Shown in pieces: positions 3,259 to 48,644 of a stretch of 48,644 nucleotides of DNA. Positions within the stretch are counted from its first letter, which is position 1. Each line of letters begins with the position of its first letter. A model generated the notes under the pieces. That model had not been told where the DNA came from and did not search any database. It saw nothing but the letters and a program-made list of their open reading frames with translations. Source of the stretch: Escherichia coli. Lineage in GTDB: Bacteria; Pseudomonadota; Gammaproteobacteria; Enterobacterales; Enterobacteriaceae. The translations under genes and the position numbers were made by a program. Where the stretch lies: assembly GCF_016903815.1 (NCBI RefSeq), contig NZ_CP069971.1; one strand, written 5' to 3'.

Positions 3259-3274
3259 TTAACGAACTCCAGTT

Positions 3275-3400
3275 AAAACCACGATATGTGGTATTAAAAC
3301 CACATATCGTGAGTTTTTCAATGGGCAAAACAAAAAATAACCTTCTATTTGTGGTCCACCTCTCGTCTTACCATGTGAAAACCACTAAATGTGGTAATGT
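3275..3400. promoter_or_regulatory. divergent promoter/operator region with ACCAC-N5-GTGGT operator sites
   Basis: Cores at 3278-3292 (ACCACGATATGTGGT), 3299-3313 (ACCACATATCGTGAG, the mirror of the first) and 3381-3395 (ACCACTAAATGTGGT), plus a GTGGTCCAC element at 3351-3359. Confidence 0.6.
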
Positions 3401-3432
3401 ATAAATAACCCACCATTCACGATTGATGAGAC

Positions 3433-4560: not shown

Positions 4561-4585
4561 AAGCGGGCTAACGCCCGCTTATATG
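4561..4585 (+). terminator. intrinsic terminator hairpin
   Basis: AAGCGGGC-TAAC-GCCCGCTT followed by a T-rich stretch. Confidence 0.5.
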
Positions 4586-4589
4586 ATTA

Positions 4590-4683
4590 TAGATTTATAT
4601 AATTATATAAAACGCTTTTCATCCGCCAAAAAGTTGGTTATGCTTACCTCGTTCTATAAATATAGATTTATAGAATTATATAA
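4590..4683. repeat. two AT-rich composite sites (ATAGATTTATA + TATAATTATATAA) upstream of parA; candidate centromere/operator
   Basis: 4590-4610 ...tagatttatataattatataa and 4661-4683 tatagatttatagaattatataa. Confidence 0.5.
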
Positions 4684-4706
4684 CCAAACACATGGAGTCT
4701 CGACAA

Positions 4707-5360
4707 ATGACTATCTCTGTAGGTATTTTCAACGGAAAAGGCGGCGTAACCAAATCAACAATTGCCCGTGCTTTAGCAGTTGCTTATGCAAAGGCTGGCT
4801 GGAATGTATGCCTGATCGATATGGATGTGCTTAACGGAACGGTAACGCGTTGGGTACAACGCAGAATGGCCAACAATATCGAACCAGCAATCGCGGCGCA
4901 GCCGTGCGGCACACCATCACAAGTCCAGAAAATCATCGAATCAGAAGTATACGACCTGGTTATCGTCGATGGCGGTGCCTACGCATCTGAATCAGTACCG
5001 AAGCTCTCTGAATTTCTGGATATGGTTATTTTGCCAACCAGATTCTCTACCGATGACCTGGAAACCACCGTTAACACAGCTCACGGCATCGTTAAAAAGG
5101 GTGTACCAATCAAGAAAATTTGCATGGTGTTTTCCGGCGCGGCTGAAAACGAAGCTGACTATATTGAAGCCCAAGAGTACCTGGCTAATACGCCATACTT
5201 TGTTGTCGATAAGTACATTCCCCACAAGCCAGCTCTGAGCAAAGCTCAGGATAAGGGCTTAAGCCTTATTGAGTGCTCATACGTTGCGCCACGCAAAAAG
5301 GCAGACGATGTTATCCAGGGGATTATCAATCAGCTTGAGGCTCTGACTACTGCCGCGTAA
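4707..5360 (+). CDS. parA: ParA-family partition ATPase (deviant Walker A)
   Basis: MTISVGIFNGKGGVTKSTIA...CLIDMD; GGAG RBS about 10 nt upstream of the ATG at 4707 (the ORF track starts at an upstream in-frame ATG, 4692). Confidence 0.8.
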   Translation: MTISVGIFNGKGGVTKSTIARALAVAYAKAGWNVCLIDMDVLNGTVTRWVQRRMANNIEPAIAAQPCGTPSQVQKIIESEVYDLVIVDGGAYASESVPKLSEFLDMVILPTRFSTDDLETTVNTAHGIVKKGVPIKKICMVFSGAAENEADYIEAQEYLANTPYFVVDKYIPHKPALSKAQDKGLSLIECSYVAPRKKADDVIQGIINQLEALTTAA

Positions 5361-5391
5361 TATATAATTATAGTTTTATAGATTTATATAA
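5361..5391. repeat. AT-rich palindromic site between parA and the ParG-like gene
   Basis: tatataattatag ttt tatagatttatataa, the same motif family as at 4590-4683. Confidence 0.45.
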
Positions 5392-5403
5392 AAGGGGATA
5401 CAC

Positions 5404-5652
5404 ATGGCCGCACCATCAAAACCACCGAAAAAGAACAGCAAAGGCGTACCGCCATCAATCGAACAACCGCAGGTTTTCGACCCGACTGAAACGCCGACCA
5501 GAACCAAATCAGGTGGGGCACAAATGGCGTTTAACGTCGACCCTGAATTTAAACGCGAGTACAAAACGTTCGCCAGCTCAATGGATATGTCATTGAAAGA
5601 AGTGCTGACAAAATCTTTTGAGTTACTCAAGGCTCAATACAACCAGAAGTAA
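5404..5652 (+). CDS. small partition/centromere-binding protein, ParG-like (predicted ribbon-helix-helix)
   Basis: 82 aa; flexible basic N-terminus and C-terminal MAFNVDPEFKREYKTFASSMDMSLKEVL, RHH-like; immediately downstream of parA. Confidence 0.55.
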   Translation: MAAPSKPPKKNSKGVPPSIEQPQVFDPTETPTRTKSGGAQMAFNVDPEFKREYKTFASSMDMSLKEVLTKSFELLKAQYNQK

Positions 5653-5874: not shown

Positions 5875-5900
5875 AAAAAAGGCCCCCGAAGGGGCCTAAT
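5875..5900 (-). terminator. intrinsic terminator (GGCCCC-CGAA-GGGGCC, T-run on minus strand)
   Basis: Perfect GC hairpin flanked by an A6 run on the plus strand, i.e. T6 on the minus strand; lies between convergent genes. Confidence 0.65.
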
Positions 5901-5902
5901 CG

Positions 5903-6022
5903 CTACTTGCTGCTAATGTTTATCGTCACATTCAGAGCGTTATCAGTAATCTTCCAACCCTCCCCATGTGGCGTAAACAAAGCTCCAGTAACAACGATAA
6001 AAATACACATACAGTATTTTTT
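5903..6022 (-). CDS. small hydrophobic peptide (about 40 aa), function unknown
   Basis: MKKYCMCIFIVVTGALFTPHGEGWKITDNALNVTINISSK with an AGGG RBS, ending at the terminator hairpin. Confidence 0.3.
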   Translation of the reverse strand, partial: KKYCMCIFIVVTGALFTPHGEGWKITDNALNVTINISSK

Positions 6023-6423
6023 CATTGTATGGCCCTTACAGGCCGTTTCACGGCATCCCCACCGACGAAAACAACGCGAGAGCAAGCACGGCTGCTTGTG
6101 CTTGCATGTACGGCAACGGAGAATCCTCCCCTAAAGTCGGTGCCCGGGTGCGAATCGGCGGGAAGGTCCACAGGTATTTTACGATTATTTTAAGATTAGT
6201 TATAGGAAAGAAATTAAACGAAAAAACTCGTTTATTTTCACAAAATCAGTAACCTACCCACAATCTGTGAGTTTGCAGGCACAACAAGAACCACAATTTT
6301 ATGAAGCATAATAGTGGACTATTATTACCTTTTGGGTAAAATTAACTTGCTGCTTGTGCTTGCGTGGTTGTTTATACAACAACGTAATGCTGAAAGGACC
6401 GCGAATCCGATCAGCACGAAAGA

Positions 6424-6483: not shown

Positions 6484-6593
6484 TGTCTCTGTTAAAATCC
6501 CGCCGTATTGACATAAATGCGCCATTGGTGGACACTTTCCTAGCCGTAGCAAAATCTACGGTCGGGATTGGAACCCCGTAGACACAATGGCGC

Positions 6594-6616
6594 ATACCGC
6601 GTTAGCGGTTTTTTTA
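6594..6616 (+). terminator. second terminator-like hairpin in the antirepressor leader
   Basis: ACCGC-GTTA-GCGGT followed by T7. Confidence 0.45.
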
Positions 6617-6781
6617 TGCGTAAAGCACTGCTACACCCAAATTATGGTGGGGCGTGCGGGGGAGTCGTAAGACTCGCCGGTTCGTCATTGTGTCCGGTAG
6701 TTCCAACCCTGCACGTCTCACCACCCAATGATTGGAACCTGACGGTGGTGAGTATCCTTAACCTTTAAGGGAATCATCACA

Positions 6782-6973
6782 ATGACAAACCTACCCCATG
6801 ACTATTACGTCAACCTCGTAAAGATCCTTCTCAAGAAAGCCTCATACGCCGATAAATTCCGCCTGGCTGAAATAATCGAGCGCGAAGCTATGCGCATCGC
6901 CAGCAACGATAACGCTGTTTCTGTCGCAAAAATCTCCCTCGTAACCAAAGTAGTTATGGGAGGTGCAAAATGA
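6782..6973 (+). CDS. small protein translationally coupled to the antirepressor gene
   Basis: 63 aa; its stop overlaps the ATG of the next gene (ATGA overlap at 6970). Confidence 0.45.
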   Translation: MTNLPHDYYVNLVKILLKKASYADKFRLAEIIEREAMRIASNDNAVSVAKISLVTKVVMGGAK

Positions 6974-8151
6974 AAACGCTTCCGACCGTTAACACCCTAC
7001 AGCCTATCCTGCATAACCAGATCCCCGTTATCACTACTGAACTACTGGCGCAATTGTATGGAACCGAGCGCCAACGTCTGACGAACAATTTCAATAGAAA
7101 CAAGGAACGTTTTATAGAAGGTAAACACTTTTTTAGGATAGAAGGTAAAGAGTTACGAGAGTTGAAGAACAAAAACTCTTTAAGAGTTCCTGTGAGAGTA
7201 GTTAACGAACCATCTTTAAGAGGGTTACAAATTCCCCCGAAAGTTCGCTCCCTCATCCTCTGGACAGAACGCGGGGCTGCACGTCACGCCAAAATGCTTG
7301 AAACTAACCAAGCGTGGGATGTGTTCGAACGGCTGGAAGACTGCTATTTCAGCCAGAACGCGCAAACGGCCGCGACCGTAACCGTCTCGCCAAGCAATGC
7401 TCGTGAGGTTGTTGATACGCTCAACGCCAAACCAATGTATTACGTTAAGGTGTGCAATAACGAGCCACTCACAACCTCAGCCGATGTTGCCCAGGCATTC
7501 AGCACCACAAACAATTCCATCGTTATGGCCATCGATGCGTTACGCATTCCTCGCACAGCTGCGGCGCGTCATTTCTTTAAAGAGCAACGACCGTTGGAAG
7601 GAAGCGACCGCGAAATAACAATCTATCGCATGACAAAAGACGGATTTACCTTGCTCATGGAAAGTATCGACGGTCCAAGCGTGAAGGATATCAAGCTGGC
7701 CTACATTGAAGCTTTTAACGCTATCAGCAGCGTGTTAAAGGCAGAATACGAGCGAATACTATACAACCGACTGTATCAGGAAACAAAGATTATCCGAACG
7801 GCAACAGAACATCATCGGCTATTAACGGAACCAAACTACCGCAAGACACTAATCAAAGAGTTTGACAAAGCGACGGAGAAAACTAAAGCGGCACTAAATC
7901 TACCAACAATGACTAAGGATGATGTGATATCAGCCTTACTTCTTGATCTACTCAGAAACGCCAGAGCACTTATAAGCTTTGACGAAAACCTGAATCCTCA
8001 GCTCAAGCTACTACCACCGACAGGCAAAGTAGTCGACCAGGCTGATCACAACAGCATACTCAGCGTTCTGGATGCAAACCTGCCAGCCAGGACACTACAG
8101 GAACTGATAAAAATATCTGCGGATAAACTGGCCGCAGGTGCAAAACCATAA
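6970..8151 (+). CDS. antirepressor-like protein (ORF6N/KilA-type N-terminal domain)
   Basis: 393 aa; N-terminal ...NNFNRNKERFIEGKHFFRIEGKELRELK...LILWTERGAARHAKMLETNQAWDVFERLEDCYF matches the ORF6N-type antirepressor pattern as I recall it. Confidence 0.6.
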   Translation: MKTLPTVNTLQPILHNQIPVITTELLAQLYGTERQRLTNNFNRNKERFIEGKHFFRIEGKELRELKNKNSLRVPVRVVNEPSLRGLQIPPKVRSLILWTERGAARHAKMLETNQAWDVFERLEDCYFSQNAQTAATVTVSPSNAREVVDTLNAKPMYYVKVCNNEPLTTSADVAQAFSTTNNSIVMAIDALRIPRTAAARHFFKEQRPLEGSDREITIYRMTKDGFTLLMESIDGPSVKDIKLAYIEAFNAISSVLKAEYERILYNRLYQETKIIRTATEHHRLLTEPNYRKTLIKEFDKATEKTKAALNLPTMTKDDVISALLLDLLRNARALISFDENLNPQLKLLPPTGKVVDQADHNSILSVLDANLPARTLQELIKISADKLAAGAKP

Positions 8152-9792: not shown

Positions 9793-10173
9793 TTACTTAA
9801 CGAGGAATAAAAATGGTTTATTGTTCGGCGGTGTAATCGGGGCTGGCTCGCTTTTGCTCATGCGATCAGTGTACCAAGCCAACTCCTTGTCAAAGTAAGC
9901 CTGATTAAAATAGGCCATGAATGTAGTTTCAAATCCATAACGACCGCTAATACGCAGCATCTGATTGCCGTTCTCTGTTTCCAGATATACCTGGGCACGT
10001 TCCTGATTCTCCTTCAGCCAGGTTAAAGCCTCATCGCATGAGGACACACGATACTCATCATCGTAGCCGTCATCGATGCGGCTTGAGGAAGAACGGCAAA
10101 TCACGCCAACAGAACCAGCCAGGATAGTTTGAATTTTAAGGAAAGCGTTTTTGCGGATTTTAATCATGCTCAT
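9793..10173 (-). CDS. hypothetical protein (126 aa), first gene downstream of cassette copy 2
   Basis: ORF with a GGAGA RBS supplied by the conserved leader; no family recognised. Confidence 0.5.
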   Translation of the reverse strand: MSMIKIRKNAFLKIQTILAGSVGVICRSSSSRIDDGYDDEYRVSSCDEALTWLKENQERAQVYLETENGNQMLRISGRYGFETTFMAYFNQAYFDKELAWYTDRMSKSEPAPITPPNNKPFLFLVK

Positions 10174-10285
10174 CGGGTTATCTCCGGTTTAACCAGGGCG
10201 GGTATCGCTCGGTTTCGGGTATAACCTTAGGAAATTTTTTCCCACCTGTAAAGCACTTTTTATATAAATCTATAATTATATAAAT
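10174..10285 (-). promoter_or_regulatory. conserved promoter-leader cassette, copy 2
   Basis: Identical to copy 1 over about 103 bp. Confidence 0.6.
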
Positions 10286-41609: not shown

Positions 41610-41875
41610 TCATCATCTCCTGCCGCACATACAACCTCACAAAAAACATCAGCGGAATGTTTCTTTTTGAATGAATGGCGCTCAAAACCGCACTCAATAT
41701 CAGGCGCAAAAACATCCACCACATACGGTCTTTCAGAATGTTTGTTTTCCCAACGATAAACCGTAGTGACGTTGAAATGTTTTAACGCTTCACGGTACTC
41801 AACGCTGCCCGTCAGGTTTTTTGAGGTCAGGTATTGCAGGAGGTTTTTTACTACTTCACGGTCTTGTACTTTCAT
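41606..41875 (-). CDS. hypothetical protein, first gene downstream of cassette copy 3
   Basis: 89 aa; RBS supplied by the conserved leader. Confidence 0.45.
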   Translation of the reverse strand: MKVQDREVVKNLLQYLTSKNLTGSVEYREALKHFNVTTVYRWENKHSERPYVVDVFAPDIECGFERHSFKKKHSADVFCEVVCAAGDDE

Positions 41876-41987
41876 CGGGTTATCTCCGGTTTAACCAGGG
41901 CGGGTATCGCTCGGTTTCGGGTATAATCATAGGAAATTTTTTCCCACCTGCAAAGCACTTTTTATATAAATATATAATTATATAATT
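41876..41987 (-). promoter_or_regulatory. conserved promoter-leader cassette, copy 3 (four substitutions relative to copies 1 and 2)
   Basis: tatctccggtttaaccagggcgggtatcgctcggtttcgggtataatcataggaaattttttcccacctgcaaagcactttttatataaatatataattatataa. Confidence 0.6.
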
Positions 41988-42575
41988 CTATGCCACTTGC
42001 CAGAGAGCATCATGCAACTGGATACCTCCATTGCACTGGTTGCCCCAGCCATGCCAACCATCAGGTAAATCACCGCGAGCAAACAGCTCAATACGAGGAA
42101 CATCACCTAACAGCCTTACCAGCTTGTCACGAACCACATCAGGCTTCCGAGAATGCTCCAGACGAGGCGATGTAAACGACTGAATGATCCCCGCATCAAG
42201 GCGGGTCGGCAATTTGCCTTTTACCGCAAACAAGCAATCTTCACTGTTTGCACGAGTCATATGCCCCATCCCCATCACCAGCTTATCTGGTTGTCGGCTA
42301 CCACATTTGTTCCATGTGAAGCCCTTCATGGTCATAAGCCTGAATCCCCATGCTTTCACCACCAGCAACGCTTCTTCTGGCTGAGTCGGAACCCACCACA
42401 TGGCCAACAAACACGATTCAGGATTAGCAAGCTGCCAGACAGGAATACGAGCAATATCCTCAGCTTTCATCGTTGGATACTTAAAACCAGCTCCACGATT
42501 CCCATCCTTACACTTATCTTTGTATTCCCAGGGGGGATCTGCATAAATCAGATTAAACAATGCAATTGCCTCCAT
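41988..42575 (-). CDS. MT-A70-family DNA N6-adenine methyltransferase
   Basis: 195 aa; LIYADPPWEY and ...SRKPDVVRDKL... motifs. Confidence 0.75.
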   Translation of the reverse strand: MEAIALFNLIYADPPWEYKDKCKDGNRGAGFKYPTMKAEDIARIPVWQLANPESCLLAMWWVPTQPEEALLVVKAWGFRLMTMKGFTWNKCGSRQPDKLVMGMGHMTRANSEDCLFAVKGKLPTRLDAGIIQSFTSPRLEHSRKPDVVRDKLVRLLGDVPRIELFARGDLPDGWHGWGNQCNGGIQLHDALWQVA

Positions 42576-42883: not shown

Positions 42884-42959
42884 TGGTGGCCCCTACCGGA
42901 TTTGAACCGATGACCGTGCGATTATGAGTCGCCTGCTCTAACCACTGAGCTAAGGGGCC
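42884..42959 (-). tRNA. tRNA with CAU anticodon (Met or Ile2-type)
   Basis: 76 nt; GGCCCCTTAGCTCAGTGGTTAGAGCAGGCGACTCATAATCGCACGGTCATCGGTTCAAATCCGGTAGGGGCCACCA; cloverleaf folds by eye, encoded CCA end. Confidence 0.8.
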
Positions 42960-43100
42960 ATATTTGATCTGTTTGTCTGGTGTGGCGCCGCGCACGAAAA
43001 TCCCAGCCAATAAATTCAGGATTTTTGGGCGCGGCGGCATATCAGACAAACATGGTTGATGCGTGCGCCCATGAGAAAAGCGCATAGAATGTTGTAACTA

Positions 43101-43130
43101 TATATTTATATAATTATAGAAATATATATT
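43101..43130. repeat. AT-rich palindromic site (tatataattatag) upstream of the tRNA
   Basis: Same motif family as at the par locus and the cassettes. Confidence 0.45.
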
Positions 43131-43338
43131 ACTTTCGGCAGTTGATTTCCCATGCCCTGTTATGAGCCAGAATATCTTTCTTTGTCTGGCGGTCCATAAC
43201 ATCGATGTCGTGATCAGTCAGGTAGATGGGCTTTACCCAATCACAGGCGGTATCAACCACCACCGGGACGCTTCCACGACTCCCGCAGCTCGCGATCAAC
43301 ATCGTCATCAGCCATATGGTTAACACTCTGCTGTACAT
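43129..43338 (-). CDS. o-spanin-like lipoprotein (Rz1-like)
   Basis: 69 aa; lipobox-like LIASCGS; overlaps the 3' end of the i-spanin-like gene in another frame. Confidence 0.5.
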   Translation of the reverse strand: MYSRVLTIWLMTMLIASCGSRGSVPVVVDTACDWVKPIYLTDHDIDVMDRQTKKDILAHNRAWEINCRK

Positions 43339-44353: not shown

Positions 44354-44735
44354 TTGAACCCCCTCCACGTAAGCGGGAAAGCATTCCAAAGATGCTACCG
44401 AGATCCTGGCTGTTTACGAACGTGAGGATTTTAATTGTCAATGCAGCCACAATAACCGCACCAAGTGCATCAAGAGGACGATCGTTGTAGCTGGTCCATT
44501 TGGCAAGAAATGAGCCAACTAACGGCGCTCCAATCACTCCAACAATGAACGATGTAAAGAAATAGCCAATCAGCTTGAGACGGCTAATATTCACCGCTGT
44601 AGCAACATAGAAAACAGCGCCAGCAAATGCCCCGAATACAACGCCGTAATCAATACCAGTTGCAATACCAAAAACGCTGGCCCCCATCAGGCCACCAGCA
44701 GCAACGGCCGTACCGGAAATTGGTTCTGCTGACAT
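44340..44735 (-). CDS. holin
   Basis: 131 aa with several TM segments; GAGGA RBS; first gene of the lysis cassette. Confidence 0.65.
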   Translation of the reverse strand: MSAEPISGTAVAAGGLMGASVFGIATGIDYGVVFGAFAGAVFYVATAVNISRLKLIGYFFTSFIVGVIGAPLVGSFLAKWTSYNDRPLDALGAVIVAALTIKILTFVNSQDLGSIFGMLSRLRGGGSNGKQ

Positions 44736-44748
44736 TGAAATCCTCGTT

Positions 44749-44782
44749 AAAAAAAAAGCCCCGCCGAAAAAGGCAGGGCTTC
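44749..44782 (-). terminator. intrinsic terminator immediately upstream of the holin RBS
   Basis: Minus strand GAAGCCCTGCC-TTTTTC-GGCGGGGC followed by T9. Confidence 0.6.
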
Positions 44783-45121
44783 ATAAAGCAACAAATTACG
44801 CGGTAATCGCTTAACGCAGTTTTACTACGTTAAATGAAACACTACACCCAGTTACCACCTAAAACAAGGTTTCCCCATAAAAAAACCTTCATATCGTGGT
44901 TAATCGATCAATAAAAAATCAATGTTCAACTTTTTACCAACCGAACATCCCGACCAGGACTTCCATAATATTCGCCGATATGCCACTGCTTAAGTTGAGT
45001 AATCTTCTCCAACTTAACTCCCATAGAGTCCAGTTTCTGCCATGTTTTCGGTTGTATGTGCTTCATTACCCGCTCTGAATATCTGAATACTGCTCGTAAG
45101 CGCATGGTTTCTCACTACAGC

Positions 45122-45529
45122 TTATATATGTTCACGACTGGACTTCCAGAATATCCACGCCAGATCAACATTCGGGTCCTGGTAATTCATCCCTTCGTTG
45201 GCACGAATCAATAATGTTTCATGGTTTTTATCACCCGCATGAAACCTGACAAGTGCTTCGAACTTTTCGCGCCCATCATCCGGCACTACCACCGTTGGCG
45301 GCGCGGAGAATAGAGGTTTAGGTGATATTTCCGCACGTTTTGCGTATGCTTCAACTGTGTCAGGGTTAAACAGGATTATGTTTTCACCGCATTCCCACGC
45401 TACCGGCTCTGCTTCCAGTGATGCCAGAGCAATTTCATAAGCACGGCGCTCAATATTGTCTCGGACGTCCAGGCTGCCTATGCGCTCTTTGATTTCTTTA
45501 ATCAGTTCTTTGTCGGTTAAAGTGGTCAT
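45122..45529 (-). CDS. hypothetical protein
   Basis: 135 aa ORF. Confidence 0.45.
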   Translation of the reverse strand: MTTLTDKELIKEIKERIGSLDVRDNIERRAYEIALASLEAEPVAWECGENIILFNPDTVEAYAKRAEISPKPLFSAPPTVVVPDDGREKFEALVRFHAGDKNHETLLIRANEGMNYQDPNVDLAWIFWKSSREHI

Positions 45530-45735
45530 TTGTTAATCCTCAAAACTTTATGCCCGGGCGCAAAAGCACGCGTTTTGTCGGCGCTTATTCGCCACCCATC
45601 TTTACGTGCCTCTTTTGCACAGCCAGCCCATGACGTACCGATATATTCACCGAAGTCTGGTACTGGATATACACCTTCCGTACACTGGCGGCAGTCACAA
45701 TAGAGATGCATGGTGTAACTTGCGGCAACAGCCAT
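45526..45735 (-). CDS. small Cys-rich protein (69 aa from the internal ATG)
   Basis: AAAGGAGAG RBS before MAVAASYTMHLYCDCRQC... Confidence 0.4.
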   Translation of the reverse strand: MAVAASYTMHLYCDCRQCTEGVYPVPDFGEYIGTSWAGCAKEARKDGWRISADKTRAFAPGHKVLRINK

Positions 45736-46100
45736 ATCACTCTCCTTTAGTACGCAAGTGGTTTTTCCAGCGGTTTTGCGCCGCGCTGCGCTTATCTTTG
45801 ACTCCCTCTCTGGCAATTCCAGAAAATGAAAACAACACCACACGGCGATTGCTAACTCTCAACCACTGGCTGGGGTAGCAAAGTCTGTATACACGGGAAA
45901 TAAGCATCTTTGCTTTACGGTTTTTCATCGCTTTGCTCTCCTGCGTCTCTTTGCTGCTCGTCGTGCCGCTGCAATACCGGTATGGCGGCGCTTTGGTGCC
46001 GGGATGATGTTGTCAGCCATCAGGACATGTGGCTTTGCAATTAGCGCAGAAGCCCAAAAACGAGTCGGGTACGGTAACAAGCCGATACATGCCACACGCA

Positions 46101-46736
46101 TTACTCACCTCCTTTGATGCGAATGCCAGCGGCGCGTGGCACATTAACTTCCACGATACGCACTGTTGGTTTGTACATCTCAATCGCTGTCAGCCAGTCA
46201 GCTCCTGTCATGCGCTTTTCCGCATCGCCATTAGTCCACTGAACCGGTACACCAATAGCCTTCATCGCGATTTCTATTTCCCCGGCGATGGCGCTTTTTC
46301 CGCAACCAGTAAAACCAGAAACAACGACAAGAACTTCACCTTTGGCTGGTTTTATTTCCCGCGCTTCCAGTTCTGCTATGCGCTTACTTCCATCCGCGAT
46401 TACTCCCTCGTAATACTCGCGTTGCTCGTTGAGTTTTGATTTTGCTTCCTCAAGCTCAACACGCAGCTTCCCTACCGTTAGCGCAATATCCTCGTTCTCC
46501 TGGTCGCGGCGTTTGATGTATTGCTGGTTTCTTTCCCGTTCATCCAGCAGTGCCAGCACGGTTTCTGGTCCGGTCAGAAATTTGAAGGCGTTGAGCGCAT
46601 CAATATCCACACCGTAATCTTTAAGTTCCTGTTCACTTAACAAGTCATCATCAGCTGGCAACATTAACAGGCGTTCCATTGCTGGAGTTGCACGTTCCGC
46701 CACCTCACGCAGTGCCTGGTAATTAATTTCGCTCAC
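46101..46736 (-). CDS. hypothetical coiled-coil protein (possibly Ea22-like)
   Basis: 211 aa; MSEINYQALREVAERATP...; family guess from memory. Confidence 0.4.
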   Translation of the reverse strand: MSEINYQALREVAERATPAMERLLMLPADDDLLSEQELKDYGVDIDALNAFKFLTGPETVLALLDERERNQQYIKRRDQENEDIALTVGKLRVELEEAKSKLNEQREYYEGVIADGSKRIAELEAREIKPAKGEVLVVVSGFTGCGKSAIAGEIEIAMKAIGVPVQWTNGDAEKRMTGADWLTAIEMYKPTVRIVEVNVPRAAGIRIKGGE

Positions 46737-47007
46737 TGGCTGCCTCCTGCTTTTCTGCCTTCAACACCATGCGAGAACCATCATCCAGCTCCCACACTAT
46801 CTCACCACCTTCAGCCATGACCAGTTGCCACACCAATTGAGCAGCCTCATTGGTAACATCACGACCTGGATCATTGCCAACGCGCATACGTCCACCTTCA
46901 ACATCGCGCATTTTTGCCAGCATGATAGTTTTTGATAGCGGTGAAAAACCAAGCTGTAGCCGTGCGGAATTACTCACTGGTTGCCCCCTGAATACGTTTA
47001 AACTCAA
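46723..47007 (-). CDS. hypothetical small protein
   Basis: ORF overlapping both neighbours; start uncertain. Confidence 0.3.
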   Translation of the reverse strand: MSLNVFRGQPVSNSARLQLGFSPLSKTIMLAKMRDVEGGRMRVGNDPGRDVTNEAAQLVWQLVMAEGGEIVWELDDGSRMVLKAEKQEAASERN

Positions 47008-47576
47008 TTACCCATACCCACGGGTTAGATAGCCAGTTCTCTTGCCCGTAAATACCGCGCCAGATATCACCAAAGCCAACGCGATAAACCGCTTCCGGCG
47101 GTGTAATCTTGTACGTCGCCGGAGATGCGCCTTCCGCTTTAGCATCTGCCTCGCTCATGTCATGCAGCCGTTCCACACGCACGTCGGTAATTTCCAGCAA
47201 AATACGCGAAGCCCAGCGCGGCATGTGAATCGACGGGGTCCAGCCCTCAGCTGGCTTGCTACTATCGGAGTAATCAGCCTTGTAATCACACAGTTCAGAA
47301 GCCAGAGAGACACCATCTTTGATTTCCTGAATGACATCGTTATCCAGCCAAAAAGCGTTGAATGTTTCACGGACCCATATGCGATCACCAACGTTACCGA
47401 ACGGGCATAAACCATGTTCCGGTGCATCCATAACGTGGGTATAGACACCATTGCGTTTCTTTGTCGGTTTACGGATAACCAGGCAGTTATCGGCCCTGAC
47501 ATTTTTTACAGGTCGGCGAGTCTGCGTTTTCCTTCCTTCGAGGATGGCTCTGACCATCTCATCATTAAAAATCATG
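46970..47576 (-). CDS. hypothetical protein, possibly ASCH/PUA-like
   Basis: MIFNDEMVRAILEGRKTQTRRPV...; AAAGAG RBS before ATG 47576. Confidence 0.4.
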
Positions 47577-47595
47577 CCGCGCTCTTTCACCTTGC

Positions 47596-47961
47596 TCACT
47601 TCAACTCCTCCCGACGACGTTCCTGAAGCTCTAGCATTGCGGCTCGGAAATCCTGCCACCACTCCTCATCTGCAACGGGGGTGTTCCGCTCCAGCACCTT
47701 GTCCGCATCTGCGATCAGATTTGCCAGACTCTTGTCTGAAATCTTCGTTACCGGAGTCGTTGGTTGCTCAACCTGCCCGATAGGTTTTATCGTGCTCAAA
47801 AGGAGGCGACGGCTGGAAAGTGGCGACCCACAACGGCGCCCATCTTCCTTGCGATATGTTTCTTTCGGACCAACACACCAAGTTGTCGGCGTTTCGCGTA
47901 ACTTCACTTTTTTCTCACCATCAATGGTGATGATTATTCCGGTATGGGTTTTGATGCTCAT
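47596..47961 (-). CDS. hypothetical protein
   Basis: 121 aa ORF. Confidence 0.4.
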   Translation of the reverse strand: MSIKTHTGIIITIDGEKKVKLRETPTTWCVGPKETYRKEDGRRCGSPLSSRRLLLSTIKPIGQVEQPTTPVTKISDKSLANLIADADKVLERNTPVADEEWWQDFRAAMLELQERRREELK

Positions 47962-48260
47962 GCCACAGCCCCTCTCAACGGCTTAACTTTGGCTAATAAG
48001 GTGTTAAACAACATGGAGTTAGGGTTCATGCCAAATGGCAATTCCGGTTTAGCGGAGTAGTACAGGCAACCATTTATTTTCCTGGTTGTTATCTGTCCTT
48101 CGGCAACCATGCTTCTCAGTCTGCAACGCATAGAGTTCTGCGACACACCAATGTGCTCCGCGATTACGTCCACTTTTGAACATGGGTGATCGGTCAGGAA
48201 ATTAATCACATCTTGGGGGTTAATAATTTTGCGTTTCATTGTCGAGGCGTCCTTATACAT
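47958..48260 (-). CDS. putative winged-helix DNA-binding protein (PapI/FaeA-like)
   Basis: ...INFLTDHPCSKVDVIAEHIGVSQNSMRCRLRSMVAEGQITTRK... Confidence 0.4.
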   Translation of the reverse strand: MYKDASTMKRKIINPQDVINFLTDHPCSKVDVIAEHIGVSQNSMRCRLRSMVAEGQITTRKINGCLYYSAKPELPFGMNPNSMLFNTLLAKVKPLRGAVA

Positions 48261-48261
48261 T

Positions 48262-48285
48262 TATATAAATATATAATTCTATATA
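48262..48285. repeat. AT-rich palindromic site (tatataaatatataattctatata)
   Basis: Same motif family as the other seven copies. Confidence 0.45.
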
Positions 48286-48306
48286 CGGCGGGAGACATCC
48301 CGCCGT
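48285..48306. terminator. hairpin ACGGCGGGA-GACA-TCCCGCCGT
   Basis: Perfect 9-bp stem between two minus-strand genes; no clear T-run. Confidence 0.4.
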
Positions 48307-48316
48307 AGGCTTACTG

Positions 48317-48644
48317 TCAGGCTTTCAATAGCGATTCTTTCAGATATCGGGCATCAGCCAGGGCATTTGGAGTAATTTTGCGAATCCATGCATTACGGGT
48401 TGGACTCCACTTAAAGGCGCGTGATTTAAGCAGCGAACGAATGTTTGCCTCTGGTTTGCCAGGGAAATAAAACAGGATGCGGTTATCCTCTGGATCTATC
48501 TCCATAGAAAAGTCGTCGTATTCTTCGCGCTGTGCTCCTGTTACAGACTTGACCGATTCAAGCTCCTTAATACGGCTCTGTAGTCGTTTGATCTCGGCGT
48601 TATTGTTGCTCAGTACGTATGAAGGGAATCCGATGCGCCCAGAA
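48317..48644 (-). CDS. hypothetical protein, 5' end beyond the window
   Basis: The reading frame stays open from 48505 to the window end. Confidence 0.4.
   Translation of the reverse strand, partial: SGRIGFPSYVLSNNNAEIKRLQSRIKELESVKSVTGAQREEYDDFSMEIDPEDNRILFYFPGKPEANIRSLLKSRAFKWSPTRNAWIRKITPNALADARYLKESLLKA

Follow-up and report, generated by a model that had tools for sequence, protein, structure and literature searches.

The centromere sites of the prophage-plasmid N15 are scattered around its genome. There are four of these sites, IR1–4, and they are bound by SopB (PMC7205306). In TP228, 4-bp boxes together with 4-bp AT spacers form the ParG operator and centromere upstream of parFG (PMC3130281). 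Among phage accessory proteins, Ea22 of lambda and of Shiga toxin (Stx) phages is pro-lysogenic and tetrameric (PMC7093339, PMC10834534), and Ea22 proteins share an N-terminal and coiled-coil part while swapping C-terminal domains (PMC10834534). Here we compare with these systems a block of small genes in the region 45122–48644 of an Escherichia coli sequence of 48,644 bp (contig NZ_CP069971.1; "the window" refers to this whole stretch). Positions 45122–48260 are filled by nine closely packed minus-strand genes, and the region is probably the downstream part of an accessory-gene operon of a phage-plasmid, mosaic in composition and accompanied by partition-type arrays of AT-rich repeats. We judge the block itself to be an ordinary mosaic accessory cassette; the regulatory layout around it, which is specific to this family of elements and includes a three-copy promoter-like module, eight arrays, and a conserved leader and terminator, is more interesting than the block.

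The window is a complete circular genome. In blastn, Yersinia phage vB_YpM_39 aligns in a single piece from 46741, over the window ends, to 3996 (5909 nt, 98% identity), and because the window is circular, the accessory block extends past its ends. The genome encodes RepA, ParA, a cI-like repressor, a P2-type tail, and a lambda-type head. Its nearest E. coli relatives are circular plasmid records of ~48 kb; the fully annotated example pMB9698_3 carries genes for RepA, ParA, a RelE/ParE toxin–antitoxin pair, and an XRE/S24 cI-like repressor, as well as a lysis cassette, terminase, portal, and capsid genes, and P2-type tail genes. PLSDB holds ~60 plasmids of this family, all typed as non-mobilizable and mostly from E. 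coli, with a human or animal origin for many; additionally, three relatives were isolated as myoviruses on Yersinia pestis. The circular plasmid relatives with RepA and ParA, the phage genes, and the Yersinia myovirus isolates together mark the element as a ~48-kb myovirus-type phage-plasmid of E. coli. Literature searches returned no paper describing this phage-plasmid family and none on the related Yersinia phages. The pSLy3 group was considered as a named phage-plasmid group for the element and was rejected, as pSLy3 is SSU5-related and unrelated to it.

In the direction of transcription, the nine genes of the block encode a 93-aa winged helix-turn-helix (wHTH) protein (47958–48239; a winged-helix model with a C-terminal helix), the 121-aa p121 (47596–47961; PHROG family), a 209-aa ASCH-like protein with a GTG start (46970–47599; homologous to P1 PmgT), an 84-aa DUF7446 protein, also with a GTG start (46723–46977), a 211-aa Ead/Ea22-like protein (46101–46736), the 58-aa p58 (45925–46101; PHROG family, with a homolog in Stx phage 933W), the basic 63-aa p63 (45737–45928; phrog_1380), the cysteine-rich 69-aa p69 (45526–45735; phrog_926), and the 135-aa p135 (45122–45529; of EaA/DUF551-type relation; phrog_5117, 660, and 924). 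Seven of the eight gene junctions overlap by 1–14 nt (ATGA, GTGA, TAATG) and the remaining one is a 1-nt gap, an arrangement consistent with translational coupling; a Shine–Dalgarno match of at least 5 nt precedes six of the nine starts. The first-pass annotation was thus correct in describing a block of small, overlapping minus-strand genes, and the outcome that it had named as refuting, replication or recombination genes of known function, was not observed among them. Its statement that most of them lack a recognizable family does not hold. All nine products match PHROG families, each at E ≤ 1e-32, which indicates that the open reading frames (ORFs) of the block are genuine genes rather than chance ORFs; two products (Ead_Ea22 and DUF7446) reach the Pfam cut-off, and a third is assigned to ASCH by fold only. 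No product matches a function-assigned family in Pfam, NCBIfam, or PHROGs, and the curated NCBI families (NCBIfam) gave no useful match for the block products at all. Sequence searches against solved structures returned nothing for p121, p135, p69, or the ASCH-like protein, and only weak matches for the wHTH protein (NolR) and for the C-terminal part of the Ea22-like protein (SRP54 P-loop).

Continuation of the sequence across the window ends shows that the block is preceded by a DUF3560 gene on the same strand. The 5′ part of this gene, with its ATG at 738, occupies 1–738, and the frame runs across the window ends to 48600; the 260-aa N-terminal ORF matches Pfam DUF3560 (PF12083) at 107.8 bits, against a cut-off of 27.2. 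A PHROG match and comparison with relatives identify 48317–48644, previously read as a separate small gene, as the 3′ part of the same gene. The reading frame is shifted by the loss of 2 bp (TG) at a point 5 nt from the window end (48640–48644/1); every relative has an intact 355-aa gene. Because the deletion lies only 5 nt from the record ends, an artefact of assembly or circularization is the likeliest explanation, ahead of a real pseudogene. Directly 3′ of the DUF3560 stop is a GC-rich minus-strand hairpin (48284–48307; 10-bp perfect stem, 4-nt loop, −19 kcal/mol), which resembles a terminator without a full U-tract here and is followed by TTTT in the Salmonella relative.

Upstream of DUF3560, a minus-strand promoter-like module (788–855) combines an AT-rich array (824–855) with a −35 hexamer (TTTACA, 811–816) and a −10 hexamer (TAAGGT, 788–793); the 17-nt spacer between the hexamers carries the inverted repeat GGAAA-N3-TTTCC, and the module scores 10.8, at about the 95th percentile of the coding background or above. 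Directly upstream of the wHTH gene, no sigma-70-like promoter was predicted, the best score there (6.3) being close to the coding-sequence median. The module belongs to a 114-nt repeat present in three copies (734–847, 10170–10283, and 41872–41985; minus strand) with 92–100% identity to the reference copy. Each repeat comprises the array, the promoter-like hexamers, the GGAAA-N3-TTTCC repeat, and the 5′ leader up to the start codon. The three copies head unrelated genes, encoding DUF3560, a 126-aa product, and an 89-aa product; the 89-aa gene opens a minus-strand string that leads into the packaging and morphogenesis genes. The module is kept in the Salmonella lineage and was found only within this phage-plasmid family. 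Sharing of the 114-nt module predicts co-regulation of the block with structural genes, and early timing of the block is therefore not established; the label "early-type" given to these genes is only an analogy with lambdoid exo-xis genes.

Translation of the wHTH gene more likely starts at the ATG at 48239 than at 48260; a TAAGGA ribosome-binding site lies 10 nt upstream, and relatives annotate the 93-aa product. Structure prediction supports a winged-helix fold for this product. The AlphaFold2 model has helices at residues 8–17, 23–30, and 34–46, strands at 51–55 and 58–62 that form the wing, and a C-terminal helix, with a predicted local distance difference test (pLDDT) score of ~90 across residues 10–60. 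Foldseek matches the model at probability 1.0 to many wHTH regulators, and its top 50 PDB neighbors are of the ArsR/SmtB, NolR, MarR, AspA (centromere-binding), and MecI types. Of the earlier proposal that a possible winged-helix regulator stands at the head of the block, the fold therefore survives as a model, while the head position does not, as the DUF3560 gene and the promoter-like module lie upstream on the circular genome. The suggested likeness to PapI/FaeA fares less well: the protein scores 16.9 bits against Pfam PF04703 (cut-off 20.7; E = 0.008), HTH_24, TrmB, and PaaX score alike, and no PapI is found among the top 50 structural neighbors. Both are small winged-helix proteins, but PapI/FaeA proteins are encoded beside fimbrial operons and work with Lrp at GATC sites, the neighbors of the wHTH gene are phage accessory genes, no fimbrial genes occur in relatives, and the protein of this element has a modeled C-terminal helix typical of ArsR/SmtB-type dimers. 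The value of analyzing the block lies in a corrected annotation, in which the whole molecule is a phage-plasmid, the wHTH gene is not first, and the PapI/FaeA label is dropped.

The wHTH family is very small. An exhaustive search of 1.8 billion representatives found 15 matches at E < 1e-3, four of them small proteins, as compared with only two clusters from a word-based homolog search. Distant homologs lie within phage early operons, 2–10 nt behind the preceding gene and in one case after a lambda-P-like gene; no AT-rich site was found upstream of these homologs. The N-terminal domain of p121, of ~63 aa ("KTHTG...TWCxGP"), is encoded next to the wHTH gene in three lineages, which suggests that the two form a two-gene module; here, the domain is fused to a C-terminal module of ~50 aa.

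The AT-rich palindromic site reported ahead of the wHTH gene (48245–48284) exists and is conserved in relatives, although the genome contains eight such arrays. It contains the palindrome TATATTTATATAAATGTA, matched at 16 of 18 positions here and at 18 of 18 in two relatives, and consists of about four 8-bp units with the consensus TTATAKAW. The position of the palindrome next to the wHTH gene invites the explanation that the wHTH protein is a private autoregulator, binding this site and controlling the block from a promoter inside it. The predicted fold, of a small dimer type with neighbors that include the centromere-binding AspA and the AT-DNA-binding NolR, would be compatible with such a role, and the site before the gene is conserved even in the Salmonella lineage. 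However, seven further intergenic positions carry the same arrays, among them both flanks of parA, and the arrays are unchanged between lineages in which the wHTH protein is 62% identical and its recognition helix altered. The distant homologs, close behind their preceding genes, have no upstream site; the site has no predicted sigma-70-like promoter; and in Salmonella, a DndB-like gene separates the site from the wHTH gene. A private operator for the wHTH protein is thus improbable.

All eight arrays (824–855, 4579–4610, 4652–4691, 5360–5399, 10260–10283, 41954–41993, 43090–43137, and 48245–48284) are intergenic. A pattern search of the genome gave 20 matches versus 0.11 expected, and a second scan gave 15 versus none in 30 Markov shuffles. 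The arrays keep a strict 8-bp register, with 3–5 units each, and are near-identical in position and sequence in the Salmonella relative and in the most divergent contig, where the flanks have diverged to ~70%. Three of them lie at the par genes, three in the 114-nt modules, one before the wHTH gene, and one just past the lysis cassette. As a separate observation, the lysis cassette is followed downstream by a tRNA-Met(CAT) gene (42884–42959), with the array at 43090–43137 ahead of it; RefSeq calls the equivalent gene in relatives tRNA-Ile. Arrays that are pure A/T, rich in TATAAT-like hexamers, and located upstream of predicted promoters could represent generic curved or promoter-upstream DNA of high AT content, to which at most host proteins such as H-NS, IHF, or Fis would bind. 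Such DNA would hardly be expected to hold a strict 8-bp register with a unit recurring 3–5 times per array and absent from shuffled sequence, or to stay near-identical across lineages whose flanks have diverged; additionally, the clustering of arrays at the parA/82-aa pair fits a type Ib partition layout (PMC3130281). We therefore give the generic explanation little weight.

The par locus consists of parA (4707–5360, with ParA/CbiA/MipZ matches for 4692–5360) followed by a gene for an 82-aa protein (5404–5652). Two arrays lie upstream of parA (4579–4610 and 4652–4691) and one between parA and the 82-aa gene (5360–5399), and these are kept in the most divergent relative. The motif CTCGACAA-ATG, which precedes parA, recurs before the wHTH gene. 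By sequence pattern, the 82-aa protein has a proline- and lysine-rich tail and a strand–helix–helix-like C-terminus; its gene is present in all relatives, and the protein is 79–96% conserved, with the putative beta-strand invariant. Because the arrays and the 82-aa protein are conserved while the wHTH recognition helix has changed, we favor this ParG-like protein as the probable array binder. A further proposal, possible though doubtful, is that the eight arrays act as one partition-type set, at which the ParG-like protein would both mark centromeres and control the three promoter modules and the accessory block. If true, this would tie plasmid segregation directly to phage lytic and accessory gene expression and would parallel the multiple SopB sites of N15 in a type Ib system, one whose sites form part of promoter modules. 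Should the arrays link partition to lytic control in this way, the family would be a compact model for coordinating the two lifestyles of a phage-plasmid.

The mosaic character of the block is evident from a presence/absence table of 15 related loci, together with the RefSeq annotations of five relatives. Across the 15 loci, DUF3560, the wHTH gene, p121, the ASCH-like gene, and p59 (a 59-aa gene that closes the string) are almost always present, and DUF7446, Ead/Ea22, p58, p63, p69, and p135 come and go. Partial matches to the block were obtained in 442 phage records and in 3223 of 5426 E. coli genomes; among these matching records and genomes, none covers at least 80% of the block. The far-end genes are shared piecemeal with the exo-xis ("ea") regions of Stx and lambdoid phages and with P1/D6-type elements, and the variable genes are homologous to L0065–L0069 of 933W, which adjoin its exo-xis region. 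The homologs in 933W of p58, which ends in the arginine-rich tail AARRAAKRRRRAKR (45925–45990), and of p69 are 84% and 87% identical, respectively. A Salmonella relative has quite different cargo in the same slot: plasmid pAR-0407-1 (locus L008, 3153–4211) carries a stand-alone DndB/DGQHR gene (PADLOC DndB, E = 6e-35) whose insertion point falls precisely at the boundary of the AT-rich array and the wHTH gene, where the translation-start motif is present in duplicate.

Such a hyper-variable slot for small cargo genes raises the question of whether the block is mainly an anti-defence or host-takeover island, whose small proteins would inhibit host immunity during infection or establishment. The stand-alone DndB-like gene in the slot of the Salmonella relative points in this direction, as does the company kept by DUF3560 relatives, which are ciprofloxacin-inducible and occur in plasmid leading regions beside ssb and antirestriction genes (PMC11125564). 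An ASCH/PUA-like fold, if correctly modeled, could also recognize modified bases or RNA. However, PADLOC defence models gave no match for the ten proteins searched, no block product belongs to a function-assigned family, and Ea22, the only family of the block with a published phenotype, affects the lysis–lysogeny decision. A literature search on ASCH proteins in phage anti-defence returned nothing relevant. We consider a mainly anti-defence role unlikely, albeit less so than a private wHTH operator or generic AT-rich arrays.

The ASCH-like protein belongs to a very large family (all 8000 of 8000 scored candidates were significant) and shares 46% identity with P1 PmgT across 92% of its length. 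Its score against Pfam ASCH (PF04266) is 17.2 bits, below the cut-off of 21.2. The eleven best Foldseek PDB matches of the model are all ASCH structures (YqfB, 3s9x, EF3133, PH0355, and ZmASCH), at probability 0.93–1.0 and E from 6e-3, for a model of moderate quality (pLDDT 65). The signature motif of ASCH proteins is GxKxxExR; where this is expected, the 209-aa protein carries G-R-K-T-Q-T-R-R, and in its family alignment G-x-K-x-x-T-R is invariant and followed by R in at least 90% of sequences, with threonine in place of the glutamate. The fold comparison supports an ASCH/PUA-like beta-barrel by fold only. As compared with P1 PmgT and ASCH proteins, it is approximately twice the size of YqfB, with insertions, and the signature glutamate is replaced.

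The two products above the Pfam cut-off are clear cases. The DUF7446 protein scores 67.5 bits against PF24233 (cut-off 24.1), and the Ead/Ea22-like protein scores 130.6 bits against PF13935 (cut-off 27) over residues 2–124, which cover the N-terminal and coiled-coil part. The C-terminal domain of the Ea22-like protein differs from the family; it spans ~85 aa (46101–46360) and contains a Walker-A-like GFTGCGKS, but is too short for a full nucleoside triphosphatase. A divergent C-terminal domain fits the published mosaic nature of Ea22 (PMC10834534).

The string closes with p59 (44926–45105, minus strand), which is kept across the family and lacks a RefSeq annotation in the relatives examined. 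In Salmonella relatives, it corresponds to a 66-aa ORF with 63–69% identity and changes at third codon positions. It is followed on the same strand by a non-coding leader and an intrinsic terminator (44755–44925); the terminator (44755–44782; 11-bp stem, 9 U, −24 kcal/mol) is the only strong minus-strand terminator of the region and stands directly before the start of the holin gene at 44735. The core of the ~140-nt leader is more conserved than the adjoining coding sequence, and no good sigma-70 promoter was found in 44750–44925. A comparison of 44750–44907 with the GcvB small RNA (sRNA; RF00022) gave 34.3 bits, below the Rfam threshold of 42, with little primary similarity to E. coli GcvB, and pairing to the oppA and dppA leaders, as expected of the G/U-rich R1 seed of GcvB, had duplex energies that did not surpass those of shuffles (0.75 and 0.59 of the shuffles lay at or below the observed value; true GcvB R1 against dppA gives 0.007); this candidate was rejected. 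Covariation was assessed with only two diverged sequence types of the leader and so had no statistical power. Candidate roles for this non-coding stretch are those of a leader, an antitermination site, or an sRNA originating at the 3′ end of the operon.

Upstream of DUF3560 lies a longer, repressor-controlled string of nin-like genes, with a DUF1064 protein and a Ref nuclease among the products. The string begins at a strong predicted promoter that carries CCAC-N5-GTGG palindromes and diverges from the repressor gene. The divergent early control region (3259–3432) contains at least three such palindromes, one pair of which combines into an inverted repeat of 14 bp that covers the −10 of a strong predicted minus-strand promoter (TTGAAA-17-TTTAAT, score 12.1). 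Elsewhere, Rfam matches at gathering level were obtained for ryfA (5875–6171, minus strand), isrK (6543–6615), and C4 antisense RNA (6640–6728); they lie just upstream of a 393-aa antirepressor-like gene (6970–8151) and, with it, make up a P1/P7 immI-type module beside the cI-like repressor.

Taken as the downstream part of an accessory-gene operon, the block would be transcribed from the promoter-like module at 788–855, upstream of DUF3560, possibly with added read-through from the repressor-controlled early promoter near 3293–3321. Transcription would pass the hairpin and the AT-rich array, continue through the wHTH gene and the small genes, and end at the terminator before the holin gene. 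The ParG-like partition protein of 82 aa would bind the arrays, which would then function as operators or in the manner of centromeres and not as a private wHTH operator. The products of the block would act in lytic growth or establishment, on host physiology or on nucleic acids; plausible roles include those of a small DNA-binding protein, an ASCH-type protein that binds RNA or bases, and a developmental modulator of the Ea22 type. Several points weigh against this account. Promoters, read-through, and timing are predicted throughout, and the repeated module has a weak −10 (TAAGGT). Because an identical copy of that module heads morphogenesis genes, the block may be expressed in a middle or late phase and not in an early one. 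Host nucleoid proteins or the wHTH protein are alternative candidates for binding the AT-rich repeats, and the 82-aa protein has no match in Pfam, its ribbon–helix–helix reading being one of sequence pattern only. Lastly, Ea22 relatives alone among the nine product families have a published phenotype, which is pro-lysogenic, and the C-terminal domain of the Ea22-like protein differs from theirs.

Comparison with described systems places the locus between several of them. Like the exo-xis genes of lambdoid and Stx phages, the genes of the block are small, packed, non-essential, and mosaically exchanged; the N-terminal and coiled-coil part of the Ead/Ea22-like protein is homologous to theirs, and p58, p63, p69, and the end of p135 share 55–87% amino acid identity with 933W proteins. 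In contrast to these regions, the genes lie here between a nin-like set and the lysis cassette of a plasmid-prophage, rather than between exo and xis on a pL transcript, and the Ea22-like C-terminal domain is not the same as in exo-xis Ea22. The par locus resembles the type Ib ParF/ParG system of TP228 in having a gene for a small Walker ATPase followed by one for a protein of ~80 aa whose N-terminal tail is flexible and whose C-terminus has a predicted strand–helix–helix pattern, and it resembles the TP228 OF/parH region in having 8-bp-period arrays in two clusters upstream of the ATPase gene. However, the repeat of this element is all A/T (TTATAKAW) rather than built on ACTC boxes, and the element has an extra array between the par genes and five more elsewhere, three of them at identical promoter-like modules. 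With N15, finally, it shares the condition of a phage-plasmid with multiple separate centromere-type sites instead of a single locus (PMC7205306); N15 uses a type Ia SopA/SopB system with 16-bp palindromes, whereas the present element appears type Ib-like, with short iterated repeats and a putative regulatory role for its sites.

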